From: Candidatus Gottesmanbacteria bacterium
GTDB lineage: Bacteria > Patescibacteriota > Microgenomatia > UBA10105 > UBA927
Length of the DNA: 64,000 nucleotides
Reading direction: 5' to 3'
NCBI GenBank assembly: GCA_030679255.1
Contig: JAUXTO010000018.1
Coordinates: 2,973-66,972 of the forward strand
Below the pieces are notes generated by a model. The model was not told the DNA's origin. It was given only the letters and a program-made list of their open reading frames with translations, and did not search any database. Of the stretch, positions 3,096-36,700 are shown piece by piece. The first letter of the stretch is position 1, and each line of letters begins with the position of its first letter. Made by a program: the position numbers and the translations under genes.

Positions 3096-3098
3096 GGG

Positions 3099-3171
3099 TG
3101 GACCCGATCGGATTCGAACCGACCACCCCTGCAATGCGAATGCAGTGCTCTACCAAATGAGCTACGGGCCC
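3099..3171 (-). tRNA. tRNA-Ala (anticodon CGC).
   Basis: Reverse complement of 3099-3171 reads GGGCCCGTAGCTCATTTGGTAGAGCACTGCATTCGCATTGCAGGGGTGGTCGGTTCGAATCCGATCGGGTCCA. This is a canonical cloverleaf with G3:U70, D-arm GCTC/GAGC, anticodon loop TTCGCAT, and T-loop TTCGAAT. Confidence 0.85.
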
Positions 3172-3463: not shown

Positions 3464-3762
3464 ACTCACTCTAGTTTTCTCTCTTTTTTGCTCCTTGTCA
3501 AGGGGGCAAACTCGTCCTTGACACACCCTTTTCGCGCGCGTCATTATGTATATATAATAACTTTTTTCGCTAGCGGTTTTCGTTGGGTTTGAAACAGTTG
3601 GTGAAAAAAGATTGCATGCCCGGATCACTACCCAGGAATTTTTTTCATTTCAAGCATACAAATAAAAAATTAAAATCCCACGCATTTCTCCGTTTACCCA
3701 TCGTTGATGCATTTCTTTCTCTATTGATATCGTTATTGTCTCCCATGAGACACAGGAGACCC
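3464..3762. promoter_or_regulatory. Divergent intergenic control region between the small reverse-strand ORF and the giant gene. It contains an AT-rich tract and TTGACA-like boxes.
   Basis: Direct repeat tcCTTGTCAagg ... CCTTGACAcacc at 3491-3529. AT-rich stretch at 3540-3700. AGGAGA at 3754-3759 is a possible Shine-Dalgarno for ATG 3763 or 3772. Confidence 0.3.
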
Positions 3763-3780
3763 ATGAGTCGCATGAGTCCA
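3743..3780. repeat. Palindromic motif cluster 5, overlapping the giant-gene start codons.
   Basis: CATGAGACACAGGAGACCCATGAGTCGCATGAGTCC. In-frame ATGs at 3745, 3763 and 3772 all lie inside motif copies. Confidence 0.5.
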
Positions 3781-6700
3781 TCGGGTGGCTTCATCCACCT
3801 CCTCCCCCTCATCCTCCTCGCCGTATTCGCCCTCACGACGTTTATCATCGTGGGGAAAGTCGAAAAGGATAAGCAGGATGTCCGGAGCAGGGCCGCCATG
3901 TCCGATGAAGGAGGAGGGGGAGGGGTTAATCTTGACATCACCGATTCGATGCGCGCCACGCAAAACGAAGTTGCCTATGAGGAAAAGCAAGCGTCGGTGC
4001 TTCAGCAAGAACAAGAAGTCGCCTATCAAGAGGTTAAACCCCCGACCGTAAAAGACGATGATCGTCCCACAAGCGGCAACAACACCATCCAGACGACCTC
4101 ATACGACGAAGATCGTGAAGCCGCCCGGGCACGACAACTCACGGAAAATAACGCCAATCAAACGACCACCGGTACTACGACGACCACCCAGACGACCACG
4201 GAAAGAGATGATTGGCGTCCCAATTCAGGAAATACAACGACTAATACGACAGGTGGAAGTGGACAACAACAGGTCGATACGACCACGACAAATACAACGA
4301 CCAATCAAGTAAATAACGCCCCCGTTCCCGATGCAAGCATCACGACTGTCCCCGTCCCGGTTGTCATCACGGACGCACCTAAGCCTACGACCAAAGCTGA
4401 TCAGCTCACTGATTGTTACGACCAGTTTGGTTACAACAGTTCCCGGTGTGATTATTTCAAGCCCACCGTCACACAAGCGCCTTTTACACCAACAGAAATA
4501 GAGACTCCTACGCCAAAACCGAGGTTGTCCCGTTACGACGAGCTTGAAAAATCTGTCACGACGACCCCCCCTCCTGCCAACGTCACGCCAACGTCGGATG
4601 AGCGTATCGCATTGGGTATCACTCCAACGTCAACGCTCCCTCCCCGTATCGTTCCCATTAATCCACCATCAACGACGACTTCCACAGTGCCCACGACGCC
4701 TCCATCCCAGAATGTATCCAATACGAACTCGTCGCTCAATCTCGCCACAACAGCCAAATCCGCTAGTCAAATTAAGAAAGATTATGATGAATGTATTCGG
4801 AGTGATTCTGGTACTGTAGCGGATTGTTACGGTATCGCCTCTGGCAAGACGACCCCCGCGCCGATTGCCTACGTTTCTCCGGCGAATGGGGGATCCACCC
4901 CGCCGATTGCGCAAGGTACGACAGGAAAAAGCGGTACATCGACACAAACTTCCAGAGATAAATTTAAAGACGCGCCGGAGCAAACACCGGATCAAAGCGT
5001 TGGAGGCGATGCATGCGCGAAAGCGCAAGGATGGGATTTGTTTAAATGTAATCTACAGAAACCAGGCACGGCGTTTCAGGCGGCTATTATTTCGTATTTT
5101 AATCAAACGTCCATAGTCGCTCCGACCAAGGCTCCCGGTGTCGTCCCTGCCCTTACTTTTGAACAGATACAGCTGAAGCGACAAGAACTTGCTGACTGTG
5201 ATACTCCGGCATGCCGTGATGACGTGAATAAAAGATTTGGTAGCCTACCTTCGACTGTTCCCACGACGGCAAAACCACCACTAGCATCTGGCAATCAATC
5301 AGTATCAACTGCTGGCGCTCCTCCTACATCAGGTGCTAAGCCCACTGGTCCCGCATCCACGACTACCACCGCTCCGGTCGCAGCGACGACCACAACGACA
5401 ACGAGTTCCACAGGATCGACCTCCACCACCGCCTCTCTCATCCCGAAAGGTTACACCGATCCGGGGGAGGCCGGGGAGAAAGCCTGGGGAGATTGTAAAA
5501 AGTCCGGCAAATCCGATTTGGACTGCCGGGGGGCCGCGGAAAAAGCCCACGCCGTGGCAGAAGCCAATTTGCCGGCAAAAATTCGATTGAGTCAGCAGTG
5601 GCGTCAGGCTAAAGACATCGGCAGGGCGGTCGATGAAGCGAGCAAAACCATGCTTGCCGAGGCCCTCAAAGCCGCCGGGGTCAAGGACAGTAAGGGGCTC
5701 TCCGCCGATGCATCGGCCAACATCCAAGCCATCCAAAAACTTTTAGCTCAACAACTTCAGGGTGATGCGGGAAAAGGTAAAACTGCCGCCGAGCTTATCC
5801 GTATTGGGGTGCTTGCGGGTAAGCTTGCCGGAGCGTCCGCAGGGACTAAATCCTCAGTGGAGATTGCCGCCGAAATCGCATCCGCCGGCCTTTTTACCGC
5901 AAAGGCCGACCCGAAGCTCGTCGTAACGACGACCACAATCACCACGCTCCCGATGTACAAAAATTCCGGCGAAGCCGTCAAATCCAACCAAAAGACGATT
6001 ACCCCGGATCAATGTACCTGGTGCGGGAGTGCGGGCCAAGGCTACTGCAGTAAAGAATGCGGCGGCGACAAATCCTGCGACGCAGGGTTTAAATTGAACG
6101 CCGAAAAAACGAGCTGTGTCGTCGATCCCAATTACAAACCCACCCCGACCCCGGCGGCGACCGAATTGGCATCTTCATCAAAGACCACGACGACTGCTCC
6201 ACTCACCCAGGAGCAATTTGATAATTACACACTCGCTAACCCTCCGACGAAACTGAAGTTTGGTGATGCAGGGTGTTTATGGTGTAACAGTTGCGGCAAG
6301 GGTTTCTGCGCTGCTATCCCTGGCGGTGGTTGCAACGATCAGGCCGCCAACCTCTGTTCAGACTGGACAAAGACCAATGACATAATTCAGGAAAATGTTC
6401 GTCAGTCTCAAAGCACGGTCGCTGTTGCGCTCCCGCAAGCAGCTCAAGATGCGTATCAGGAGGCCATAGCCACCTATAAATCTGATGAAAAAAAGCATGA
6501 AGAAGCGGTTAAAACGTTTATTGCAAATGGTGGATCTCTCGCGCAAATCGTTGCAGCCACCGGCGCCGTCGATGCATTTGACCAATGGAAGACGTATGTG
6601 GACCGCAAAGCACAGGCGACCCAGTGGGATGAACGACGATTGGAAGTGATGGGCGACAAGCTCGATCGTAAAGTAGCCCAGCTCACTTCCCAGCAGCAGG

Positions 6701-9700
6701 CCATGCTCGTCGACCGGCAAAAAGCATTCCTCGTCAATCTTGGCGCTCAAGAAGCGGCCCGTAAAGCAGTGTTTGGCGTCTCATCCGCCGGACCGAACTC
6801 GGACTCAGCTCTTTTTGAGGCAGGCACAAGCAATCTCCCGTCGGATGTCAAAAATGATATCGACAAAGACGTCACGGACAAAACGCCGGTCGTCAAAGAA
6901 GTATTTCAACTTCAAAAAACTATGGAGGATTCGGTGCAAAATCTCCAAAAAGGCCTCGCCGAGTGTGATACCGACGAGTGTCGGACCAAGGCAGCTGCGT
7001 TTTTTCAAAATTCTAAAGCAACGATTCTCAACATTGTCAATGTCGATGCTCCCCGATTGGGCCTGGATGACGGGAGGATTAAAGAGTTCAATACATATTT
7101 GACCAATGGCGAGTATACAGCCAAACTCGCGGTGGATAAGCAAAAGCTTCTCCAGGCCTACACTTCCTGTACACCGAATTGTACAAGTACGGAAGATGTC
7201 GATGGTCGCGTCCTGGTATCCGCGGAACAAAAAGCATTCACTGCACAGTATGGCAAATATGTCACGGATCTTCGCAAGGCCAATGAGGCCAACGTTTTCA
7301 AAGAAGGCTACCAGGCGGGTTTGAACGCACTTGACGTTGATTTTCAGGTCGAAGACAAAAAGCTCGCGATGCGGGATATCCAGCTCAAACTTCCTACCAT
7401 GCCGGATCATGATATTACTCAGTATTGGCAGGATTATAACAAGTTAAAACAAGAGATCGAGCAGACGAGAGGCGTTAAAGAAGCCAATCTCGCCGATGCC
7501 TATGCTCAGACGTCCGGTTGGACGGATGCTGCAGCAAAGGCGTTTATTACCTGTATTGCAACAGGAAAAACATCGTGTGATTCTGATCCGGCTGTAAAAA
7601 CAGCGAGGACGGAAATTGTCCGAAGTAATGGCGAAAATAGTCCTCAAGTCGTCCAACTTGATCGGAAGCTTGTAGAAGTCAAAACCCGTTTTGAAATGAA
7701 CGATCTCTATGCCGCGAGGTTGGAATCCGCAGGCAAGAAAGATAATTATGCATTGGAGGATCAGTATGCCAAAACAATCAGTGAGTTAGTAAGAAACGCA
7801 GATAATTATGATCTCGTCCGCGAGATTCAAAAAGATGAAGGAAAGATAAAGACTGCATTCATAAATACTGCCGTAAGAGACGGAAAAGATTGGGCGCTGG
7901 AGATGGTATGGAGAACCGGTAATCCAGTTATAGAAAAAGATGGCACGAAGAGGGAAGCCACCAAGGCAGAATATGAAGAACAAAAGCAAGCTTTAACGAA
8001 ATTACTCGCTCAGCAGGAGGCCGCCGGAATTCCGGAGCCCGTTCGAAAGTCGTTTGAACAAAAATTCTATAACGGTGAACTGCCGGATCCGAAGAAACTA
8101 CTGGCTGATGGGACTATGCCCGTCACGTATGTACGGGATGGCGCGACAGTTACGCAGGAAGTGAAAGCCAAGCCCACGGACCTAGGCAACGTGCTCCTTA
8201 TTGCTCAGACCTCCGTTCAGAAAAACGATCACTATCAGACCTGGCTCCTCCAATCGGGAAATAAGGAAAAGACTCCGGCAGATTTTGACGCCTACCAAAA
8301 GAAAGCCTTTGAGACCTATCAAAAGGACAAATGGCTCTCAGACTTTTTCCTGACGGATGAGAAAGCGAAATCAGACTACGTGAAGGGGCTTTATACCGGA
8401 GAGAAAAATGCAGACGCCTTTGCCACAGCATGGAAGCAAACATCCTGGAGGGAAGCAGTAACTATTAAAGTTCGTTCTATGGTCGGTCCGGAAATTAACC
8501 ATAAAATGGACGAATTTTATGGACTCCAAAAGGATCTCCCCATCGTGCAAGCTGACTACGTGAGCGCGCAGCGCACGAAGGATGCAGACACGCGTATCGT
8601 TTTGAGTCGTTCAAAAGAGATCGAACAAGATCCAAATTTTGCAGATATACAAAGAGACTATGGATGTACCACCGGCCGCCAGTGTCTGGAAAAACAAATA
8701 GCTCAGATGTGGCTCATGGGGCAGGATGCCAAGTTTGGGAATAACGACAAAACCAAAAAAGTTTTTGCCGACGATCCGGATTGGGCGGTCAACGGCGTGA
8801 TAACCGGAAAATTGCAGGTGGGCGATGTCCAGAATCTGGTGAATCAGTATAACAAGGAGCGGGACGAAACAGTGATTAATCCTGTCGTGAAGTATGTTGA
8901 TACGGTTTTGGGTTTTGCAAGCAACATTCCATTATTAGGCGAGCTTGCCAAGCTCGAGAGAAAGCTCGTGGAAGGCACAGTCACCCAAGCCTATCGTCCG
9001 GCAGACGAAAAGCTCGCTTTGGGATTGGCAGAATTGTACGTCAAAAGCGTTGGCGGTACGCTGGAAGACAATGACAAGCTCAAAGATGACGAAATAAAGA
9101 AAAGAATCGTCAATGTCGCGGCCCAGATTGCCCTGGGCACGTCGCTTGATAACCTCAAAAGCGGTATTGATGCGCAAGATAACCTGTCCCTGGTCAAGAA
9201 AATGGAAATACACGGCAAAAATTCCATCCAGGCAGCGTATAAATTGGAAACGAACGCCGTAGCGCAAAAGGAATATATAGAAAAGCTGGACTGGGGGGAG
9301 AAAAACGCGCTGGATTTCGTCAACTGGACACACGGCTCAGCCGTCCGTGGTCATGTGACGACCGAGCAAGGGAAAGAGCGGCTGATAAGAGGCAGTGCAA
9401 CCGGTAACAATATTGAGTATTTTGCTGGCCTTGGTGACATGGCCCGGGGCACCGTTATGTCCGGCGGTAAACTGTATGGCACACTTCTGGCATTTACTGT
9501 ACCGGCAGCGGGACTTGTGGGGGGGACTACAGCTATCACCGGTCAAGGGTTACTCAACGCAGTGGGCACCGGCATGGGTCAGTATCTGGCCGGCGAAAGC
9601 TGGGCAGGGACAGCCGAGGCATGTTCGTTTAAATCCTCGATGGATGGGGCAGCCTGCGGCAGGTCTGCCCTCATGACGGCATTTATGACGATCTCCGCGG

Positions 9701-12700
9701 GTCAGGGTGGCGCGGCGATCTTGAATAAGCCCGCAGCATTGACAAATTCAGTTGCAGTAGCAGAAAACGTAATTGTTGGTGGGTCCAAGGTGGGCGCGAT
9801 TACGTCGGCCGCGCGCAGACTTGAAGGAGCCATCGCTGCTTCCGCACCGGTGCAAGCTATTGAACGCGCTATGGTCAGCGCGCCCGCGCAGTTAGGTCTT
9901 AATGGGTTGGGTATCGCAGCGTTTGGCGGCGAGGCGTTGCATGTTTGCGGCACCGAAGGAGTAGGGGTCAACTGCGGTATCCAGGCTGGATTTACGGCGG
10001 TGACGGCGCTTCGTTTTCTTAATGGTGGAGCGCAGATGATTGCCGCGAGGCAACCTCCGGGAAGCGCTCTGGGCAAGGTTATTACAAACGGCAATAAAGC
10101 TATCGCCGTCCTTGATGCCGGGGTCAATGGGACATTAGCCGGTTCCGCCTGTACGGCGGCCCTCGTCGGTCTTGCGCCCGGGGAGAGCTGTGGCACGGCC
10201 ATCATGTTTTTGACGACAGCGACGATTCATACACGGGATGCGTTCAAACCCGGTGGTCATCCGCCGGAGACTGCCGCTTCAACCAAAGATTCGGGAAAGA
10301 AGTTCGCATCTATGCAGGACGTGGCCAAAGATTTTAACAGCGCGCTTTCCGTAGACGCCAAGACCGGTAAGGTCACGGTTAGGGCGGATAAAGAAATTAC
10401 ATTCACAGACGTACAGGGAAAAGAAAAAAAGATTTCAGTCAAAACGACATCGACTGATGCGGAGATTGCTGCCGCGCGTAAGCAGCTCGTGAATGATTAT
10501 GCAGAGACGAAAGTCGCATTCGACGAATCGGTGAAAGTGGCCCAAGCAATAGCCCGGACGAAAGTAGATCCCAAAGACACAGCGATGGACAGCGCGATAA
10601 AGCTTGCCGAAGCTAAAAAAACATTCGACTCATCCGTCTCAGAAGCCTCATCAGACCCATCGAAATTATCCCAAGTTGATACCGCAGCCAAAGCGCTCGA
10701 AACGGCCGCCACCCGCTACCGGGCAGAATCGGCGGATCTGAAAGCCGCCCGCGGGTACAAAGTCCCTGCGGACAGTGATCCGGTCAAAGCTAAGGCACAT
10801 CAAGACGCATTAGCCACATTAGACACATTGGTCACACGAACCCGTCCCGCAGGAGAGACTCCCGCAGCTGAGAAAGCGTATAATGTGGCCTACGAACGCG
10901 CTAAAGAGGGAGTCGTTATAGCCCAGGAGTCTATCAAAGCAACGTCATACAAGGGACGACAGGAAGTTCTTCATAAAGAAGTCACCGCCGCCCGCGCCGT
11001 CAAAGCCGAGGCACAAACCCGTCTTGATAATGCCGAACCAGAGCTCGCGCTTGGCCAAAAGGTTGGTAGTTTATCACGCGCAGAACGTTTTACCGCGATT
11101 GTCAATCTTGAAGCAAGAGTTAATGAATATAAAAACGCGGCACAATCAGAAGGAGGATGGGAGGCAAAGGTCCAGCAAGCAGAAACACTGCTCACTGCAG
11201 CAAAAGCAAAACATGCATACATCACGAGTTTGGAAGTCGTTAATGGCGATAAACCACTGGCGAAACTTCCGGAAATTCCTGCGGATATCCAACAAACATA
11301 TGATGCACTGACCAAACATAGTGAAGCCCAACAGCAGATTGTTCAAGGGGCTGAAAAAGCGATTGAGCAATCCAACACGACGATTGCAGAAAAAGTCAAA
11401 GCCCGTGACGGCGCCGGGACCAGACTTGCCAAGCTCGGTGATACCCCCGTTGGCTCGTATGTCCGTACGGAAATTCTCGGAAGACTGTATCCCGAAGAAT
11501 CTCAAGCGCAACAGAGACTAGCTACCGACGTCGGCCGCAGTGTCGTCGACAAAATCCTCGCTCAACTGCGGAGCGCTCCGCAAGCTCCGGCAGCCGCCGC
11601 CAATCAGCCGCTTCTGACCCGCCTCCGTGACGTTTTTTCTCCTGATGCTGCTGCTCGCCGAACCGCTGCAGAGGCAGAAAAAGTTCAGAGCACGGCCGCG
11701 ACTGCTACACAGCGCGCACAACAGACACAAAGTGAACTATCACGGGAAGTTGCACGGCTGGAAAAAGAAGCATTGGACGCAAAAGATAGGAGTACAGTGC
11801 GTACTACAGAATATGAATCTGCTCTTGCCAAAGCCAGACAAGAATCGGAGCAAAAGCCCGCATTACACGCCAAAGAAAAAGGTGAAGTCGCATTTCAGGA
11901 ACGATTACTCGCAGAAAAACAAGCGGAAATTAGACGGTTAGAAGAAAGCCGCGCGTCACTCAAAAGCGACGTGGATAAGGCGGTGCGCGATAGCGTCATT
12001 GTGGGCGCGCGCCAGACAGAGCAAACATATCGTGATCAATTAACCACAGCAAAACAAGCGCTGGAGGATGCCATCGCGCGGACATCAGAGGTTGTTCGGG
12101 CCAATGATCAGCTTGGCAAAGCTAAACAAACTGCGCTTGATATCGAGGCTGCAAACAAATCAGCAAAGGAAAAATTAACTGAGGCCACGAAAAATACCGA
12201 CGTTGCCAAACAAAAAGAAAAACAAGCCAACGATCGGGTATTTTTAGAGCGGAAAGCCCTCAAAGATCTCGCTTCCGTGGCGAAGGATGGTCAGGCACTG
12301 CAAAAAGAACTCCGGGAGCAAAAGGATTTGGAAAAAAAGTATGACCGCGAGCTTGTGGATTTGCAGTCCGAGCGGAAAAAATTGGAATTAGAGGTACAAA
12401 AGCAGACCGACGCGCTTACCAAAGCCAGAAATGAAGTCAAATCCAAACCAAGCAAAGAAGTGTTGGATGCCAACGAATTGGTACGCCAGGCAGAAGTGAG
12501 GGTTGCTCAGGCGCAAAATGAGCTGACGCGTTTGGATAATGAACTAAAAGAAGGAAAAACAAGTAAAGCCGTTGTTGATATCGCTAAGATTGCCTATCAG
12601 GAAACCAAAAATGATGCAGAACTGAGGGTCCGTGAAGCTAATAAAGCGCGCGATGGCGTAATAGACCTCGATCCGAGGGCGCAGAAAGCCAAGGATGCTT

Positions 12701-15700
12701 TGGATAAGACATGGAAATTACTGACGGAGAAAAATCAGAAATACGCCACAACAAATAAAGCCTGGGAGACAGCAACCAACCGAATTACAGAGTTAGAATC
12801 CCTTCCGTTATCTAAATCCTTCGCCCAGCGTCTTAAAGACGCCTTCATTCCTCCCAAGACAACTGTTCCCGCCTCGCCCGTCGATTTATCCGCCGAAGCT
12901 CCGGCGAAGGCGGACCCCACCGCCGTCAAACAGATCTTCGACCGTACCACGGTCTACAATGAATCACTCCGGGCAGCACAAGATGCGTTGGGAGAAAATG
13001 TATTAGCATCTCCATCCCAAGAAGCCATCAGACGAGCTCAAGATGCCACAAAACAGATCATAGAACAACAGCTAGTTCTTGAAAATGCTGCTGCTCGTGG
13101 GGTTGCTGCCGATTCGGTGGCAAATAGTTTGAACTTTAAGCCTCGTCCGCGTGGCATTGCCGCGATGCAGGCTGGGATAGAAACGCGTCAGGTATGGGCA
13201 CGGGATGTATGGAATGCTACGGCAGAAAGTACACAGGAAAGAGTCTGGGGAACCGTGGAGAAGCCAAGCCGCCTCCGGTTATTTGTCGACCGTATGGGTG
13301 ACGGTCCGCTCAATCGCGCACTTGCCGCAAGTGAGATGGCCCGCGCATACAACCGGCAGGAAATTACGGGATTTGTGGCTACTGCCAAAGTTGAAGGCGT
13401 TCTGCGCGATGGTAAACAGATACGACTTCGCGGTGCAGGTGATACGATAAAAAGTTTGAGTGATACCCTCTCTGGCTCACCCGATGGCGTGTATGATGTC
13501 ACAACCAGCGGAGAGAACGTTCGCGTGGTCAAATATGGAAATAAATTGTACGTTGGGAGTCAAAACAGTCCCGAAGCAGTTGCGAACGCATTTGCAACGA
13601 AAGAATCATTGACCATCAAATCGCGCGTGACGGATATTCCTGTCGATAGCAGCGGAAAAGTCACTGTAACCATCAATGGAGAAGCAATCGCAGCGGATTC
13701 GTTTGCTGCATTGAAGCCTAAATTGGCAGGGAAAAGTGGTGTCGCCCGTAGTGAGATTGGCGGCAAAGAAGTGCTCTTAGAAGTGCGGGAAGGTGATGTG
13801 TTCATTGCCAAAAACGGGAGCAACGGACAGCCGCAACTCGTTGAAGGGAAGATCGGGACAGAATTTTGGATCGATGAGTCGATTGCCAAAACGAGGAGCG
13901 CTAAGCGGGTCATCGCAGAGTTGAAACGAGGCATTGCAGATATCCAGAAAGCCAAAGGCGACCAGCAATTTTGGGGATTTGAAAAAGGAGAGAAAAATCA
14001 AGTTCAGTATATTGCTGACGCCATTTTAGGCCGGGAGACCGGACAACGCGGCACGCTTTACGAGGCGATCACCGGAATAGGAAAGACGACCACGATTATT
14101 CCGAGTGTCGCGGTTCTCAAGGCCCGCATCACCGGTTCGCCGGTTGTGGTGATCCTCAATACGACGGCTGATGTTGCGGCGTTTTTTAAAGATTCCCCGT
14201 CGGAATTTTTTACGAAAGTCGGGCAAAAAATCGTCGAGTTTGACGCCAACAATTTTGATCCAGGAAGCCCCGCGCATACCAAAGCCCTTGCGGAAGCCAA
14301 CATCATCGTCACGACCAAAGATGCGATTTTTGAGTCCATCAAAGGCAAGCAAGGTGAGCCGTTTCTGCGGAAAGCCAAGGGGTCGGTGCTCCTTGCTGAT
14401 GAAGCCCAAAATACCCTGCGCCTGGAGATCGACTACATCATCACCCATGGTGGCCGGACGCGGCTTGCGGACCGTCCCGACGGACAGTCAAAGATCGATA
14501 TGTTCACGGAGGTTTTGGATGGGGCAACCCTAAAGAAGCTTCGTGCCACACTTGCCGAACGGGGGCTTGAGGCGATGCTTGAAGAGTCCGGTATCACGCG
14601 CGCAGATGGCCGCGGCAAGGTGGGGAAAGCGGAAGTGCTTGCCGAAAGTTACCGCGATCTTTTGGAATCAGCGATTGCCGCGACGGAAAAGGCAGTTCCG
14701 GGGAGCGAGACCGCCATACGGGAGTACTTGCGGACAAAAGGGCTGGAAACGGGTCAGCCGGTCACGAGCGAACAGGCATTTGCGCGGTTTTTGAATGAAA
14801 TTTCTTTTGCTGGAGACAGTAGCGTTGCCATCAAGATAGTACAAGCCAACACGCGGGAGAGGATTGCAGCGTTTAATAGTATTGTGAATCAGTTTGCCCA
14901 AGTGCCGGGCAATGACTTTACGGCTGGTAAAGGTGGGTTTGTCGTCCTTGCCGAAGGAGGCGCGATATCCGGCAGGACTCCTTCCCGGGCGTATGATTCG
15001 CTTGCGCTTGCCCAGGTGGGGTTTGAAGTACTTTCCTCCCGCGGGGTGAAGGATCTCGTCAGTCCACCGCTTCGGGATGTATCGATAAGCGAAAGCAGTA
15101 TCGGTACCAATTATGCCAAGTTTCTCAAAAACTTCTCCGAGATTTACGGGTTTACGGGGACTCCTGATCGGGTAGCAGCACAGTTTGATCGGGTTTATGG
15201 TATTAAACTCGGCAGCGGTGGGGTCAAGCAGTTTGATTTCGTCTTCGGTGATCCGGTAAAAGGCTCCCCGGCCAAGCACGGAATTGCTTCTATCGTGGGT
15301 TTGGGTCAGGCTACTACTGAGAAACTGCGCGAGACGTTTTCTACGGTTGTTGACGGGCAGGGAGACAAACAAGTCACGCATATCGTCAATACCGATAGCA
15401 GTATTCCCCAGGGAGAACTCCTTGGATTTGCCCGTGAGCAGGCAGCGAAAGATTTGAGCGGGAAGTATGCCGGCAAAGGTGTCGTGGTCATCGTCAATGA
15501 TCCGAATGGTCAACATTACGCCGTAGAATTTGGCCGCGACGGAAGTGGGAAAGTGGTCGAAACGTCGCGCCGGATGCTTACTGATAGTGACGCTAAACGC
15601 GTGAGCGCAGAAACGAACAATACAGCAATCACTTCAGCCAAAGAACTCATCAATAGCGAGCTTGCGGCAGCCCGGACAGATGGCAAGCGGGTATATCAGA

Positions 15701-18700
15701 TTTATGAAATCGGACAGCATTATGGGGTAGACCGCGTGACCTTAGCACAGGATGGGTTTGTCGTTCTTGCCAACAACAATACGACGCTCACGGATTTTCT
15801 CCAGGGGGTGGGACGCGACCGTGGACTGAATGGTGGTGCTGGGACGAATGCATACTCTCGGGTTGATGCGATCGTTCGTGGTGTAGACGTAGCGAATCAA
15901 GGCACATTTACCGATCAGGCAGCGATACGCAATCTCGCCGATCAGGTATTGCGTGCCTCAGAGAAACGTGCCATTGCCCAGTCTGAGCTGGATGCGCTAG
16001 GACGCATCGCCGAAAACGTCGGGTTCGATGTTATTGCGCGTATGGAAGAGGCAGCAAAAGGTGGAAGGATTACGCAAGCCTGGAATAGTGGCAAAGTCCC
16101 GCAGGCGGCTCTTTTTGACGGTCTTCGCGAGACGCTCCGCAGCCGCGCTGAGCTGGATTTTTCCATCGGCAAAAGCGATGTGACCGGTAAACAGGATTTA
16201 CTTGAAAAGGTGAACCGTATCCAGAAAATGTTGGTTGAAACCTACGAGAGCGAGTCCTATAAATCTTTGCCGGAGTCTTCCAAGCGGGTGCTTCGTGATG
16301 CGTTGACACAACAGGATGGTACGGTCAAAACAAATCTTTTTACCGAGGCGGACCTTGTACTTCGTGGTGACCGGAAAAATGGGAAAGGAGACGCTGTCGG
16401 CGCTCTCAATGAGTCAAAAAATCTCATCGATTATCTCGACCGAGTTAATGGTGTTGTGAAAGCAGAGGATATACCCAAAACTATCGCTCGCGGCTTGGTC
16501 CCAACGGAAAAGAATACCGATTTTGCTGCAGCAAATCAAACGGGTCAAGCGCCATCAGTTTCCGCTGTTCCCAACGATCCCATTGGCACCGCCAACCGCC
16601 TCGCCGCCGAGATTGCCAATCGTGGAACTGCCGCTGACACGACTCCCCTCACTACCTCTCAACAAACGACTCTCGCTGCGGGTTTTGTCGCCGCCCAACA
16701 AGCGCTTACACAGGCCGCTTCTGCCCGTGATCAATTTGCTGCAACTATTCCACAACAATCATTCCGTACGTCAGGCTCTTTGAGTCTCGATGACCATATT
16801 ATCGCGGTTGACAGTCAGGGTAATCGGGTGATGCTAGCGATTGGAAAAGATACGAAAATTGTCACACCGCTTGCCGGTGGTGCAGGCGAGACATATTACG
16901 ATTTTAATGTTAATTTTCAACCATTTCAGATATCTGATCAGGTAAGGACACTTACCATTCAGTCCGGCAATGAAGTGTATACGGTGGGCGCTGATCAACT
17001 TGATGATGCCAGAAACAAGGTGGAGCAGGAACTCATCACTCCCGAAGACCAGACCAAGAGAGATGCCCTGGAAAATGACCTCGCTCAAGCCAAAGCACAG
17101 GCAAAAGAGTTTGAGCGTTTACTCGTCCAATCTCCCCAAATCCCCCAATCTCCCCAAATACCCCAATCACCCCAACTTCCCGTCGACCTCCGCTCCGGCC
17201 CCTGGACCAAACCTGTCGCCGACGCAGTAGCCCAAGACCTCGCCACCGGTAAAAAGACCGTGGCAGAGGTTGGGCTAGCCGAATCGTACGCCCTCCACGC
17301 TCAATCCGTGGGTCAAACCAGGACTGATATTGAGAAGAGGCTCGCCGCCGACCTCGCCGAACGCATCACTCAGGCTCTTCCCTCTAGTGTTTCTATCCCA
17401 TCTAGTGTTTCTATCCCTCCTTCTCTTCTCTCCGCCGTCGCGGCCTACGAAAACGCCGTCACCAAGGCACTCTATCATGACTACGACAAGTTCACTGCAT
17501 CCGAAGGCCGTACCCCCGACGAGGCCCAAAAGCAAATCCAGCTCGCAACTGACACGATCGTCATAGCCCGGGCCAACGCAGAGGAAGCGATCGCTAAGGC
17601 GCTTGCGGGCAAAACGGATCCAAATGCGCAGCTCACGGTTGCTGAACGGGTAGCGGGAAACCACGCCCTTACCGCCATCTCCGGCGCCCTCATCGCCGAT
17701 GCCCCGGCCGTCGCCGCCCGCCTCTCCGCCTTCGTCACCGGCGCCCGGGCCACTGGTATCAGTCCGTTTGTAGGGGATAAACCGTTTACCAACGTCACTG
17801 AAGTGCTTTTCCGCGCGACGCTGAGCGCTATCTTTCCACCGGCATCCCTCAGCCGTGCAATTATGCAAATTCCGGAGTTTTTAACTTCACTATCGCCGGA
17901 CTACGTTGCCCGTTTGAGAGCTATACTGGATCGGGTAGGCGCAACAAGAACGGATCGTTTATCGAAATATCTTTTTAACGCTTTCTCGACGTGGCTCAGC
18001 GTAAAAGATCCGGATTTTGCTCCTGCCGCACCGACTTCTACTGCTCCTTCGACTCCGTCTACCGCCACTTCCGGTACGGCCGAAGTCGTCCGATCAATGA
18101 AAGAAATCACTGATAATCTTGATAGTCTCCTTTCTGCGAGTTCGACACTTCCTACCCCTGATGCTGTCATGAGCCCTATCGAACGAGCTCAAGTCTATGA
18201 GAGTTTATCGTTGCCGGATGCGGGGGTCGTAGAGAGCGCAAAACAATTGCTTCAAGGTGACGTTGGCATTCGACTCATGAGGGCATTAGGTCAGAAGACG
18301 GATGTATTGTTGTCGTCACAGGTAGAGGCCAAACAAACAGCTACTATCGATGCCATCATCGCCTACGAAGCCGCGGTGTTGTCCGGAGATAAGACTCAGA
18401 TTGCCGCTGCCAAGTCAAAAGCCGAAGCAGCCATCAAAACCTTCGTCACAGATTCTTCTCCGGAAATGCAGTCGATACGCGCCGGAGCGCCGAAGAAATT
18501 TATATTCGGCATTGATTATGCCGCCATCCTCACCCGTACTTCATCAGTCGTCGTTTCACCATCAAAAGTTTCAAATTCTGCTCCCTCTCTTCCTTCTACT
18601 CCTCCTCTTTCCTCTGTTTCCCAACCCGCCCCGGCTCCCGTAACTTCTCCTACAACTCCCGTAGGTTCTCCCGTATCAGCTCCCGCTACGAGCCAACTAT

Positions 18701-21700
18701 CACCCGGCATGCCTCAGGATTACTATAAACCGATTCATGAGGATAGTCAGGCATGGCCATTTGCAAGCGGTATCTCCCGAGCGTGGGATATACTCGGCAA
18801 AACCGTCCATGTACTTGTGAAAGAAGTGATATTTGCTGACCCTTTCGCCTCCGTCAAAACATACGGCCCATTTGCGATCAATGAAGATTCGGTCATCTCG
18901 TCAGGCATGGTTCGGACACTTCGCGCGGTGACGCTTGTTGCTTCACGCGCGGCGATTCTTTCCATGCCCGGCATGCAACCGTTTATTATCCCGGTTCTTA
19001 TGGAAGACGCCGGCAGGATATCACGAAGCGCGTTTGTGTCCGTTGTCGTGCGTCCCGTCGCCCGTTGGTTTGCCAAAACCGCACTCGGTGGATTCATTCG
19101 TGATGTAGCGACCATGAATATCCTGGAAGACTGGGTCAAGCCCGGATCGCGTCTATCCCAGACCATTAAAAATATCCTCATCGGAAGCCGCGAGGGACTT
19201 GCAGAGCATTACATGAACACGACGCCCTTCGGGATCGGGCGTAAAGACTGGACACCGGTCAATGCGGTTACGGATACCCTTGGTTGGATCGGGACGCGGT
19301 CGTTTTCCGGAGGCGTATTGCTTCTCTGGGACGGATGGCGCGCATGGCGTGGGGTGACGGAGTTTATTCTCGGGGACGATTCGAAGCTAGCCGGTTATGA
19401 GGCGGTGCGACCCAATTATTGGGCGACGGTGGGCAACAGACTTTGGATATTTCCCAATTGGCTTGTCAACGCGACCCCTATCAATAATGGCGCCGTGTGG
19501 ACGCTCACGCGATTTGGGTACCTGATTCTTCCTTTTTCCATCGGGTTAGTTGCGGTAGGCTTGAGCTTTATTCCTCTCGTAGGACCGATAGCTGGTGGCG
19601 TGGTTGGTTTATTGGCCGCGATGACATTCTATGTTGCCCAGCAGGCCGGGTCAATGCTTTGGGATTATGACATGCACCGGCTGATCAATGATTATGGATT
19701 TGCTAAGCCATGGTATTGGAAAGTAGGGAAAGAGCAATTCCGCATGAGTCCTGACCAAGTGGAGCTCCAAGCAATCAACGCCGCAAAAGCAACCCCGGCA
19801 AGTCCAGTCACCGTGTTTACGAACGCTCATAAAGCAATCATTGATGAGATTTATACGCAAAACGCAAATATTTTAGGGGCGTCAAATACGCCGATAGTCA
19901 GAGCGCAAAAGATGGTCAATGCATTACTCAAGTCAAATCCTGAATTATTCCAAAGTCCTGCTGTTATTGAACAGATGGCGCAATATGTTCTGACGCTCAA
20001 ACCAAATAGTAAGACGGATATCGCTGAAGTTGCGCGTTTGGTGAGAAGTTATGTGCCTACTGCCCCCTCCACCCCGGCCCCGGCCACATCAGCACCCACA
20101 CCGGCCAGCGGCAATGGAGTCGGCGTTACTCCTTCCTCCCCAACGACCCCAATATCCCCAATTACCCCAACCTCCCCAATCCCTGTTGTCCCCGGCAGTT
20201 ACTCTGATGCCACGATTCGGGATGTCCGTGGCGTTTTTACAGCAGAGACGAACCGGGTGATTGAGGAGATTCAGACAAACATGCAAACGCGATTGGCCAA
20301 GCGACCCGCGACCCGTACCCCTCCTGCAGAATTTTCCCAGGCCCTGCGGGCAAGAATTTCCGGTAGCATTCGGGACGAGCTGACGGACACGGGATCCCCG
20401 ACGATGCGGACGATCACGGATCGCTTGAAAGGTCTCGGAGTCGACCAAGCAGATATTCCGGCGGTCCTCGCAGCATACGTGACCCAGATCGAGACGGGCG
20501 ACCGTGTCGGTCAGATGGTAGACCAAATTCTCGCCGGTCTTTCATCAGAGACGAATACGAGAGTGATACCGCAGTCTGAACTCGTTGCGGTTAAAGGTAC
20601 GCGCATGACTGTCGCAGACATCCACGGAGATATCGCCGCAATTGAACAGTTACTTTTGGACGAGAACATCATCACCGTCAATCCATTGACGAAAGCGTGG
20701 ACACTCAATACCAATTGGATAGAGCGCAATAATGATCCCTTTATTCTCACATTCTTAGGAGACAAGCTCGATCGCGGTGAAAATGATGCGGGTAAACCTG
20801 CCCAATTTGTGACGGACTATTACGGATGGCTATCTCTCTTTAGGGGACGCTCGGATACACCAGGTACGGCGATTATTCAGAAGATACAAGATCTTATCGA
20901 TCAGGCCAGACGTGCCGGATTGGAAAAAAAGTTTATTGTTCAGGACTTTGCGGGAAACCATGAGATACTCAACCTTTGGGCGCTAGAGGTCTTTGCGACA
21001 GAGTTGGGTAGTGATAACCCTCCGGATCGAACGTCCCAAAAAGGGAACCTTTGGTATGGTGATCCGAGTAAACCAAAAGCATTTAGCTTTGTCGCAAACG
21101 GTGTGAGCTGGAGCGAGCTTCGTGCACTTAAGGATGCGAAGTTTATCGTCGACGGACAAGGTGTTCCGTACCGTGAATTTGTAGCCAGCCGTCTCTACGT
21201 CCAGGCCCGATCGGACACATCTATCATGCAGCACACCGATACCACGGTATACGCTCGCTATATATTTACTCCGGATGATTTTACGAGGACAGATCAAAAA
21301 GAATATATCCGCGCACTTCTTTCCGGTGATGACCGGTTGAGTGCTAGGGCTTTACGATGGATTGATGGCCAGGTCAAAGCAAAGGGCCTTACCCAACAGC
21401 AAGTTGTCGATCGCATTAACGGTAACATCGGGAAACTCGTTCGCTCTAAAGAGCCGGGTTTTGCCAAGGCGTTGTTTAATGCGATGACCGATCATGGGCA
21501 GTTTAGTGAAGAGATCCGTACGTTTGATTTATACCGTTCGATCATGGGAGTGGCCGATGGCGCCATGGTCAGTCATGGTCATAATCCCGATGTCGTGGGG
21601 GATTACTTGAAGAACGGGAAGGCCGAGGGGCTTGATCGCAAGCTTTCTCGCGCGTACAGCAAACGGTCGACCGCTTCATCAGGAACTGCAAACAAAAGGG

Positions 21701-33700: not shown

Positions 33701-36700
33701 CCCAGGGGAAGCAGAGCGAGGAGCGGGCGAAGAATCCGCCGCAACCGATTGACGCGGTCATGGCGATCCCTCCCATCGCGGCACCGGTAGTCCCGCCTCC
33801 CGCACCGGGAACAGCACCCGGCCAATCGCCGCTTGGAATTCCGGCCCAACTCCCCGAGTGCGTCACCGGAGATACAAAGCTCAAGAGGAGAAAGAAAGGA
33901 AGAAAGCAAGAGAGGAAGATAGCCGGAGCCGGATCAGATTTAGATGGTGTGGAGAAAAAACAAACCGCCTCTTTCGAAGCGGCTGTTGGTGAAGGAGATA
34001 CAATATCTCCGTCGTCCGATAAGCTTATATATGATACATCGCTTATGCCGGTTATGTCAAGTGGGCGGAAGGCGGGAGACTTGCACTCCATCCCGTCTTA
34101 CGACGGGACCATTCGCTTATCAGACGACGCCCCCTCGTCGGAGGTTCACCTTCCACCTGACGCCAGTATATCACAGGATGAATATGAGGACGTTGCCATC
34201 AAAGACATCCAGGCGGGCGACGAGATCCTGTCTCTGAACGAAGCCACCGGCCAGTTTGTCCCCCAGATTGTGGAAAAACTCATGGATAAGGGCATGCAAC
34301 AAACCTATCTTCTTGTGACATCATACGGAAAGCATATTCGCACGACAGCACAACACCCCTACCTTGTGCGCGATCCGCGGTTTGTAGAGCCGCCCATATT
34401 CCCTGAGCGGATTTTTGGCAGCTTTGAAGTGGATTTATCCGGTCATATTGAGGACACCTCTGTCGATACGTTTGTATCCGTTGCGAACCAATCATTTGCG
34501 CAGACCATACTGATCGAACAAACAGTCAAAAGACTACTCCAAAAGTTATTTAAGAAAAAAAATCACCTGAAGTATCTCGGACCACGCGTATTGGCAGCAG
34601 CGATTATGAGAATTATTCGACAAAGCAACATCGCCGTGACACATTTGACCGTTGATTTGAAATTCCCCGGATATCTGGAGGAAATTTCGCAGATACTACA
34701 TAGATTTGATCCGGACATGATGGTGTATTTCGGATCTATCGGCAAGCATTCACCAGCTCACTATGCCGCTCATGGCGCATTTATTGGGAAACAGCCGATT
34801 ATCGGCTTTTTACAGAAAGAGGATATTTTCGGTAACAAAAAAGACCGCGATTCCCGAAAGAATCTAGGCGCTTTGCAAAGTAAGGACGATCATATCCTAG
34901 GGAAATCGCCTGACCAAGTAAAGAGCGCACGCGGTCAATTTGTCTCCCCAGTATATACGAGAAGTCTCGATCTGTCAAACGGATCTTCGTGGAGAAAAGT
35001 AAAGGATATCAGAGTCAATCTGGAGGTAGCAACGATCGATGGTTGGGAGCGGATCGTGAGCATTGTGCCGATAGCCCGTGAGCATGTATACGATGTTCAA
35101 ATTTCCGGCACCCATAACTTCGTCGGCAACGGCATCGTCGCGCACAACACCTCAATAGAATCGATGCGGGTCCGGGAGTTCCATGCCGATACGGACGGGC
35201 AGGGGACTCAGCACTCAAAGGTTATCGAAGATATGCTCGTCCATATTTTGAATAATCCTGATACGGCAGGAGCGTTCCAGCTCATCCGGTCTGTCCGGTT
35301 GTTTGCAGCCCAGCACGGTATGACGGCGCTTGCAAGCATGGAGGAAACGCGTATCCGCGAGCTCCTCCCCACGATCTTTCGGTTTTTTGCACAGCACCAT
35401 GAAATGGGCAACTTCATGGGGATTGTGGATGGCAAACTCGCCGTATTCAAGCTTCAACATCACCCGGGCGCGGAAGCGCGGGCAAAAGCGATTTGGGATT
35501 TGATGACGGGCAACGATGCGTCTGCCTATCGCGCGAAAGCTCAGGAGTACGGAGCAGGTACTCTTAATGACGACGAGTGGAATCTCATCCGGGGATTAGT
35601 TGGGCAGATGATTATCGAGACGAACGTCGATCAAAACACAGACGGGTATGGGCTTGTCAGCCGCGTCTTTAATTTCAACATCAACGGGCCAGAGATGAAG
35701 GAGGCAGAGGGGTTTCAAAATACCCTTGTTAATTTGTATTCTCTATCCCAACGCCAAGTCCTCGTAACCAATCCGTTTACGAAGAAATTTGACCTCCCCC
35801 AACCATGGCTCCTGAAACGGATGTACGATATTGCCCTCCATTATACCAATTCATCAAATAAATCTTACGAAGAAAGTATCCGTGCGACTGTCGAAGAGGG
35901 ATGGACCCAGACAACTGAAGAAATTGATGCGCTCACCGGTCTTGCCAAGCTCTTTCATCGGGCCCGAAACGGTCTGGGAAACCTTGCTGCCCTCGCCGAT
36001 CAGGAAGTGGGTGCGTACCTACCGGATGGCGCCTATACCAACCCCCGGACCAATATTTCCTGGGCTCTCATGGCCGAGTACATCCGCCGCGACGTGCCCG
36101 TACCGGGCTACAACCCGGCCAAACCGGAAGAGTATTTGGGTTTCATCGACACGATGGCCAATATCGAATTTGGCAAACTCTTCCACAATCTCATGCAGGA
36201 TGCAGGAGGGGAGTTAGCGTGGACCAACCGGACCCCCGCCGCCCAGCTGGCCTTCGCCCGCGCCCGCCAGGCGGAGCTTAAATCCATGGTCGCCGAAGCG
36301 ATGAAACAACAAAGATTGACCGAATTACAACTCGCAGATCTGCCCGGATTTTTAGAGAAACTGCCCGGGAAGTATCCGGACGGCGCTAGACAGAAATTTG
36401 AACAGGCACTTGAAGAGGCGATGAATAGAGTGAATGACCTGCGGTCGGCAGAACAAAAAAATACTGCGAAGACTATCCAGACATTCACTGCTCCTTTTGA
36501 AAAATTGAGTGCTGATCCGGAAGTGTCGGCATATATCATTGGTCTGGATCCGGACTATCTCGCAAGTCTTGTTGCAGAAAAGGGGGCAGTGGATCGTAGG
36601 GACGCGGAAGTGATGGTCGCTGCATTGGAGCTGCTCGCCCAACGGGATCCACCAAAGAACGCACCGCAAGATCCGGTTGTAATGGCCAAAAGAGCGCTCA

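Follow-up and report, generated by a model that had tools for sequence, protein, structure and literature searches.

In a 64,000-nucleotide (nt) stretch of the Candidatus Gottesmanbacteria contig JAUXTO010000018.1 (hereafter the window), a single giant reading frame contains, at nt 20593-21657, what is probably a highly divergent bacterial-type PPP binuclear metallophosphatase domain (residues 5674-6028, counted from nt 3574). This judgment applies to the assignment taken jointly with the catalytic activity, the phosphoprotein substrates, and the reversal of kinase action that we propose for the domain below. The frame lies on the forward strand, as do all of the features within it that are described here, and runs without stop codons from nt 3574 to 63999 (20,142 codons), remaining open at the 3′ end of the window. 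Further downstream, the same frame encodes an FHA domain and a Hanks-type kinase domain. The phosphatase domain itself belongs, in divergent form, to an enzyme family that is well known, and the giant gene that carries it is the more unusual object of the two.

Six sequence blocks of bacterial PPPs (DxH, GDxxDRG, GNHE, H-[AST]-D, GH, and L-D-x-x) are found in order within the domain. Motif I (VADIHGD, nt 20611-20631) holds the D-x-H metal ligands, while motif II (FLGDKLDRG, nt 20752-20778) holds, in the GDKLDRG at nt 20758-20778, the bridging Asp, the Asp of the His-Asp dyad, and the phosphate-binding Arg. Motif III (FAGNHE, nt 20947-20964, with GNHE at nt 20953-20964) includes the Asn metal ligand and the general-acid His. 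The His ligand of motif IV (IMQHTD, nt 21223-21240) is found in a setting that resembles VICHAD of lambda phosphatase (lambda PP) and VIAHAD of PrpA, and the GH His ligand of motif V (VSHGHN, nt 21568-21585) in one that resembles FGHTP of lambda PP. The five metal-site blocks of the Pfam Metallophos family (D-x-H, G-D, G-N-H-[DE], H, and G-H) are likewise in order, between nt 20611 and 21585. The sixth block (AEGLDRK, nt 21622-21642) is a deviant form of the (I/L/V)D(S/T)G element that is represented by YIDTG in lambda PP and has been described (PMC535813) as a fourth motif, which bacterial-type PPPs carry downstream of the GH block. In an alignment of 62 sequences, consisting of the window domain, its closest homolog, and 60 stand-alone relatives (see below), the invariant positions are D9 and H11 of motif I; G56, D57, D60, R61, and G62 of motif II; G121, N122, and H123 of motif III; H214 and D216 of motif IV; G329 and H330 of motif V; and D348 of the sixth block. 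Block I thereby retains its Asp and His, GD its Asp, GNHE its Asn, and blocks IV and V their His, which in lambda phosphatase and PP1 are the ligands of the two metal ions. The Arg of DRG, for binding phosphate, is likewise present, as is the pair formed by the GNHE His and the second Asp in block II, for protonating the leaving group.

An earlier note on this DNA described a complete GDxHG/GDxxDRG/GNHE triad in canonical order and spacing, within a domain ending at nt 21300. The three motifs are indeed present in that order and in frame with nt 20590, and the GDxxDRG and GNH(E/D) signatures are exact. In motif I, however, the first Gly of GDxHG is replaced by Ala (ADIHG), a change that falls at a non-ligand position only; the equivalent sequence is ADVHS in the closest homolog and SDVHG in the stand-alone relatives. 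The spacing is far from canonical, with 48 residues from Asp to Asp between motifs I and II and 65 from Asp to Asn between motifs II and III, as opposed to 29 and 26 in lambda phosphatase (1.7-2.5 times longer). Clade-specific insertions are found as a hairpin between motifs I and II, as ~25 residues between II and III, and as a ~70-residue helical insert between IV and V. The proposed end at nt 21300 also falls short, as motif V and AEGLDRK lie beyond it and the domain reaches ~21657. On the upstream side, the catalytic domain is adjoined by an N-terminal extension of ~120 residues (nt 20227-20592) that is conserved with the closest homolog (BLASTP of residues 5552-6028 of the giant protein against residues 3654-4066). 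In the sixth block, the Asp is kept throughout (L-D-R-K in the window, L-D-Y-G in the closest homolog, and I-D-G-G in the stand-alone relatives); the third position deviates in all three groups, and the Gly at the fourth position is lost in the window only, where it is Lys.

The Pfam search that had been proposed as a check on the domain gives a divided answer. The Metallophos profile (PF00149) matches the window domain at 16.3-17.8 bits (E of 0.013-0.005 with slices of 550 or 237 amino acids (aa)), which is below the gathering score of 21.5 bits, whereas the phosphatase domain of a 40%-identical homolog passes at 36.6 bits (E of 8e-9). This homolog, which we refer to as P0001, is the sole match in a phmmer search against 1.84 billion cluster representatives (E of 1.4e-26, 40% identity over ~380 residues). 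It is 4,366 aa long, comes from the single-cell genome of a member of the Patescibacteria, ends at a contig edge, and is named "FHA domain-containing protein, partial" at NCBI. Because the giant protein of the window was itself missing from the matches, the representative library may lack very long proteins, and the rarity of the clade, with one homolog, may thus be overstated. Neither the domain nor the two-sequence alignment gave any match in word-indexed homolog searches, scans for related loci recovered nothing but the P0001 contig among genome contigs and none among metagenome or viral contigs, and a PDB sequence search with the P0001 domain gave no significant match.

The connection to a larger family comes from a hand-made degenerate DNA pattern for LTFLGDxxDRG, which retrieves 69 metagenome loci, ~30 of which encode a stand-alone actinobacterial family of ~266 aa (hereafter the bridge family). 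This family passes Pfam Metallophos (38.1 bits), and an hhalign comparison links it to the profile of the window domain and P0001 with a probability of 98.5% (E of 2.7e-15) over blocks I-IV. Against solved structures, the best match of the bridge family is the Shewanella cold-active protein-tyrosine phosphatase (1V73/2Z72; E of 8e-12), followed by RLPH2 and ApaH. Since P0001 passes Pfam, hhalign links the clade to stand-alone metallophosphoesterases, and the metal-ligand positions are all conserved, we place the domain in the PPP family; the metallophosphatase assignment made earlier is thus upheld by the homolog, the profile comparison, and the motif conservation, with the Pfam score of the window sequence by itself remaining under the threshold. 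Comparisons by hhalign of the clade with single lambda PP, PrpA, ApaH, SbcD, and LpxH sequences did not separate PPPs from other metallophosphoesterases, and the PPP assignment consequently rests on the DRG-containing motif II and the bridge family. It is GDxxDRG that distinguishes PPPs from other metallophosphoesterases, the corresponding sequences being GDVFD in SbcD, GDLFE in LpxH, and GDKLDRG in the window.

The 69 pattern loci also include a short, frame-disrupted third member of the clade (L023, Ga0124853_1231866, positions 4-729 on the reverse strand). Its reading frame stops at nt 184 and the continuation (...SHWQENHEVEF...) is found in another frame, with Glu replacing the Gly of GNHE; a stop codon also separates the domain from an upstream 480-aa coiled-coil open reading frame. 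This locus may be a pseudogene or reflect a sequencing error.

Structure prediction, in which a two-layer beta-sandwich flanked by helices would be expected for the family, is confident for residues 1-130 only (pLDDT of ~90). With two sequences, AlphaFold2 yields a predicted local distance difference test (pLDDT) value of 39, while with the 62 sequences, pLDDT reaches 86-96 at residues 1-60 and 90-125 (mean of 57.9), and the confident part has the order of strands and helices expected for the N-terminal PPP subdomain. In a Foldseek search of this model against BFVD, the top and only significant match is a viral metallophosphatase (E of 2.5e-4 over 141 columns). The model is not independent evidence, as it was built on an alignment with family members.

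A number of results pull in the other direction. The window sequence taken alone stays below the Pfam gathering score, and no Metallophos match is obtained in 1000- or 5000-aa slices that cover the domain. An NCBIfam search of the domain gives no match, and the PDB yields none by sequence to either the domain or the two-sequence clade profile. Matches of the clade to lambda PP, PrpA, and ApaH are of motif length only. The bridge relatives were chosen by the LTFLGDxxDRG pattern and are hence selected for likeness in block II, and LDRK departs from the fourth bacterial motif. Finally, the C-terminal two thirds of the model are unreliable (pLDDT <50), and a Foldseek search of the model against the PDB finds nothing at E ≤ 0.001.

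In a protein of this size, short motifs have many opportunities to arise, and the sub-threshold Pfam score would be expected if those seen here had come together by chance. Across the 20,142 residues, GD..DRG and GNH[ED] are each found a single time and D.HG two times; in order, the three together are seen once in the giant protein and in 0 of 2000 residue shuffles. Given this unique, in-frame, ordered occurrence and the result of the shuffles, the triad is not attributable to chance. The E-value of the P0001 match, the hhalign link to the bridge family, and the presence of three more blocks where they are expected likewise refute a chance origin, whose probability we regard as negligible.

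It is also conceivable that the domain is a catalytically dead relic, that is, a pseudo-phosphatase serving as a scaffold or a phospho-binding module. The sub-threshold Pfam score, the large insertions, the Ala in place of the first Gly of block I, and LDRK would all be in keeping with such a relic, as would the frame disruption in L023, where QENHE replaces GNHE in the shifted frame. Yet all of the metal-ligand and phosphate-binding positions are kept in both the window domain and P0001, despite an overall identity between them of only 38-40%. As this is the pattern that purifying selection on catalysis would produce, we consider a dead relic highly improbable, and the PPP domain is apparently intact though very divergent.

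A further alternative is that the domain is an active PPP-fold hydrolase that acts on a nucleotide or another small phosphoester, in the manner of ApaH (Ap4A) or the ApaH-like decapping enzymes, and that the company of a kinase and an FHA domain is incidental. The PPP family does include diadenosine tetraphosphatases and decapping enzymes (PMC535813; PMC8220851), ApaH is among the PDB matches of the bridge family, and the helicase, GNAT, LCP, GDSL-like, and Fic-like modules of the giant protein share no obvious pathway. ApaH-type enzymes, however, modify the GDxxDRG motif (PMC535813): E. coli ApaH (NC_000913) reads GDLVARG, whereas the window retains DRG in GDKLDRG. This intact motif II rules out an ApaH-type identity and, with it, the ApaH-like character suggested in the earlier note. 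In addition, the best solved relative of the bridge family is a protein phosphatase, and the association with FHA recurs in P0001. Small-phosphoester hydrolysis is accordingly an unlikely account of the domain. Judged by its motifs, the predicted domain is a bacterial-type PPP that is closer to lambda PP/PrpA and to the Shewanella-like PPPs than to ApaH. Its place is probably near the Shewanella-like (Shelph) group, by a transitive assignment.

As a bacterial-type PPP, the domain would bind two divalent metal ions (Mn2+, Fe, or Zn), and a metal-activated water would hydrolyze phosphomonoesters, with phosphoproteins as the likeliest substrates. The clade-specific insertions probably provide surfaces for substrates or partners. 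The most economical role, and the weakest step of this proposal, is that the domain would reverse phosphorylation by the Hanks-type kinase that is read by the FHA domain, all three being part of the same gene product.

The two putative partners are well defined. The FHA domain (nt 53188-53395; Pfam FHA, E of 8e-16 to 5e-15) has the phosphothreonine-binding positions of GR, SRNH, and TNGS, with the motifs LGRDGD, SRNH, and TNGSF at nt 53194-53319. The kinase domain (nt 61351-62161; Pfam Pkinase, E of 5e-37, 128 bits) contains VAIK (nt 61420), HRDIKPKN (nt 61696), DLG (nt 61765), and APE (nt 61855). Both have intact key residues and are encoded in the same uninterrupted frame as the phosphatase, 31.5 kb and 39.7 kb downstream of it, respectively. 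The PPP domain is the only phosphatase detected in the giant frame, and Pfam scans of the 20,142 residues find no PP2C domain at E ≤ 0.1. P0001 also bears an FHA domain (E of 1e-19), ~400 residues upstream of its phosphatase domain, which is the sole comparative support for a functional link among the domains. The two proteins are collinear, sharing an N-terminal anchor, a Cys-rich region, a Gly/Ala-rich hydrophobic region, a superfamily 2 (SF2) helicase, and the phosphatase.

Of the earlier claim that the three domains form a complete phospho-Ser/Thr writer-eraser-reader set fused into one polypeptide, the part that stands is their presence in a single reading frame. In that frame, the stretch from the phosphatase to the FHA and kinase domains contains two HINT/intein elements as well as candidate transmembrane segments. 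The first HINT element (nt 34171-35151; Pfam Intein_splicing, E of 1e-13 to 7e-17) ends in ...GTHNFVGNGIVAHN, followed by TS, and the second (nt 46969-47883; Pfam Intein_splicing, E of 5e-11) has the same C-terminal block. The two are paralogous (38-49% identical), each has a ~200-residue insert, and their N-termini are non-canonical, with no Cys/Ser-Leu block in either. They could be true inteins or BIL-like autoprocessing domains that cut the giant protein in three. By hydropathy, candidate transmembrane segments are found at residues 76-94, 5318-5358, and 15219-15237. The second of these (ILPFSIGLVAVGLSFIPLV-GPIAGGVVGLLAAMTFYVA, nt 19525-19647) lies ~320 residues upstream of the phosphatase, has a Kyte-Doolittle mean of 2.27 over 19 residues, and may form one transmembrane helix or a two-helix hairpin. 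The third (nt 49228-49284, hydropathy of 1.85) is preceded by basic residues and followed by a LytR_cpsA_psr (LCP) domain (nt 49780-50308; Pfam LCP, E of 8e-8). Together, this helix and LCP domain (nt 49228-50308) and the weak GDSL-lipase matches that come after them have the layout of an ordinary stand-alone LCP cell-wall ligase, here embedded in the middle of the frame.

Cooperation among the three domains is the weakest part of our proposal. A distance of 10,500-13,500 residues separates the phosphatase from the FHA and kinase domains; both HINT elements, as well as a candidate transmembrane helix and a normally extracytoplasmic LCP domain, lie in between; and bacterial Hanks kinases and FHA proteins are usually partnered by a phosphatase of the PP2C type, not of the PPP type. 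The description of the domain as a phospho-Ser/Thr eraser is moreover an assumption, since bacterial PPPs can be of broad specificity or even Tyr-specific and their Ser/Thr specificity cannot be read from sequence (PMC535813).

Taken further, the phosphatase, FHA, and kinase domains could constitute a self-contained phospho-switch within one membrane-spanning protein of >20,000 residues, which would regulate its own modules and perhaps be cut or spliced by the HINT elements, with a PPP clade specific to such giants replacing PP2C. We regard this extended scenario as unlikely. If true, one gene would take up several percent of the genome of an ultra-small Patescibacterium, and the modules to be regulated would be the helicase, GNAT, LCP, GDSL-like, and Fic/Doc-like domains. 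Should the three domains cooperate at all, they would represent a Ser/Thr signaling set based on PPP instead of PP2C within a single gene, and a route to the function and control of giant proteins.

A different explanation for the same assemblage is that the domain is an effector-type phosphatase acting, in the manner of Legionella WipA/WipB, on proteins of the cell that hosts an episymbiotic Patescibacterium and not on those phosphorylated by the bacterial kinase, and that the giant protein is a surface or delivery platform for effector modules. Patescibacteria are generally episymbionts with large surface proteins (PMC8080830), and the giant protein has an N-terminal membrane anchor, a Cys-rich first 2,500 residues, and modules of effector or toxin type (Fic/Doc-like, GNAT, HINT including a weak PT-HINT match, and kinase). 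Weak similarities to the Legionella enzymes are also seen, with WipA_Phos of Pfam at an E of 0.04 for the P0001 domain and WipB of the PDB at an E of 0.17 by phmmer and at a probability of 0.60 (E of 0.066) by Foldseek. All of these WipA/WipB similarities are non-significant, however, and no secretion or translocation domain is identified in the giant protein. The candidate transmembrane topology derives from hydropathy only, and helicase, FHA, kinase, and phosphatase modules are typically cytoplasmic machinery. Such an effector role seems improbable to us, and we retain a divergent bacterial-type PPP that would act on phosphoproteins as the best explanation of the domain.

By itself, the domain extends the bacterial PPPs by a very divergent branch with only two or three detectable members, one that standard profile annotation misses, and it illustrates that motif-level reading can recover catalytic domains in giant "dark" proteins. 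As a module, it is among the few that can be interpreted in a >60-kb reading frame from a candidate phyla radiation (CPR) bacterium and is small enough for direct expression and assay.

The giant gene that contains these domains begins at ATG 3763 and extends to nt 63999, giving at least 20,079 codons, and is open at the 3′ end of the window. A gene caller begins the gene at the equivalent position on an identical Logan contig (run SRR13727518; 0 mismatches to the window over 12,358 nt), where it comprises 10,457 codons and reaches the end of that contig. The gene product, of Patescibacteria origin, has at least 20,079 residues, is non-repetitive and membrane-associated, and combines multiple enzymes. 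Most of it is without Pfam matches, the modules that are matched being a helicase, the phosphatase, the two HINT elements, a GNAT domain, LCP, a GDSL-like region, FHA, a Fic/Doc-like region, and the kinase. Self-comparison shows it to be largely non-repetitive, and a repetitive adhesin is rejected on the grounds that just a few short paralogous segments are detected. An alternative genetic code is likewise rejected as the source of the long frame, because codon reassignment cannot yield a frame free of all three standard stops. Along with the HINT elements, the only repeats are internal paralogs to which no function is assigned: nt 40018-40416 versus 45808-46200, residues 16206-16454 versus 17629-17952 and 19063-19183, and residues 18001-18098 versus 18802-18899 (28-66% identity over all such segments).

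Among the other modules, the SF2 helicase (nt 13993-14422) scores above the cut-off with ResIII (24.2 bits) and more weakly with DEAD, and contains a Walker A motif, GIGKTT (nt 14074-14091), and LLADEAQ (nt 14389-14409); a P-loop, GAGSGKS, is found at the collinear position in P0001. The GNAT acetyltransferase (nt 46360-46642; Acetyltransf_7, 29.4 bits; Acetyltransf_1, 27.9 bits) is directly upstream of the second HINT element. Weak GDSL-lipase matches (nt 50878-51457) are located 3′ of the LytR_cpsA_psr domain, and a weak Fic/DOC match (nt 55960-56257) falls under the cut-off at 20.8 bits, with a motif, HPVSNFNGR (nt 56200-56226), that is degenerate relative to HPFx[D/E]GN[G/K]R but retains the His, Pro, Asn, Gly, and Arg. 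At the other end of the protein, the first 2,500 residues (nt 3574-11073) hold 37 of its 51 cysteines, and the N-terminus includes a transmembrane anchor (nt 3799-3855) along with Thr/Pro-rich low-complexity sequence. Some 280 residues (residues 1960-2240; nt 9451-10293) form a hydrophobic, Gly/Ala-rich region that has conserved Cys and resembles residues 1140-1420 of P0001. From this N-terminal layout, the protein may have an extracellular head and, after it, a region embedded in the membrane. Upstream of the giant gene are an M23/LysM peptidase gene (nt 1279-2358, forward; NCBI MDP1722078.1), a tRNA-Ala(GGC) (nt 2432-2504, forward), and a tRNA-Ala(CGC) (nt 3097-3171, reverse), and an AT-rich stretch at ~3540-3570 precedes the frame.

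When compared to previously reported giants, the protein most resembles in kind those of Omnitrophota and Actinobacteriota, which are also very long, largely non-repetitive, and equipped with many unrelated enzymatic domains, among which Ser/Thr phosphatase domains are listed as shared by such giants; that survey, however, does not mention Patescibacteria (bioRxiv 10.1101/2023.11.21.568195). We found no description in the literature of giant proteins of this type in Patescibacteria or Gottesmanbacteria, and for Vampirococcus, a CPR bacterium, the largest reported proteins measure 1,392-4,163 aa (PMC8080830).

At the level of the domain, lambda PP and PrpA/PrpB share with the window the order and wording of the blocks (DxHG, GDxxDRG, GNHE, x-H-[AT]-D, GH[TN]P, and [IL]D) and would share the proposed binuclear, Mn2+-type mechanism. 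They differ in the length of the catalytic region (~355 residues in the window versus ~220), and outside of the motifs there is no significant match (hhalign E of 0.01-0.04). The Shewanella phosphatase PPI (1V73/2Z72; Shelph) shows further likeness. In addition to the three PPP signature motifs and the bacterial-type C-terminal blocks, it has an extra hairpin between motifs I and II with a conserved Trp (...IIDSDGNWAFGEGHMVMTGD in PPI; ...ITVNPLTKAWTLNTNW..ILTFLGD in the window) and an insert between GNHE and the next His, the Asn-to-His distance in the window being 92 residues versus 64 in lambda PP. Inserts at this location have been described in the Shewanella-like and Rhizobiales-like groups (PMC535813). 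The link between PPI and the window is transitive by way of the bridge family, as the direct BLASTP match is weak (E of 0.022). Unlike PPI, the window domain has ~25 extra residues between motifs II and III and ~70 between IV and V as well as a deviant block VI, and it is embedded in a giant protein, whereas PPI is a protein of ~340 aa. Legionella WipA and WipB, which are type IV-secreted effectors of a Gammaproteobacterium, similarly combine PPP-type N-terminal motifs with large helical insertions and are the top, though weak and non-significant, phosphatase matches by sequence and fold.

Finally, at the level of signaling, the closest parallels are the PknA/PknB-PstP-FhaA/FhaB module of Mycobacterium and the PpkA-PppA-Fha1 module of type VI secretion, in which a Hanks kinase, an FHA reader, and a phosphatase are likewise encoded together. 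There, each component has its own gene within an operon and the phosphatase belongs to the PP2C/PPM type, whereas in the window, the phosphatase is of the PPP type and all three domains are encoded in one >60-kb frame, 31-40 kb apart.

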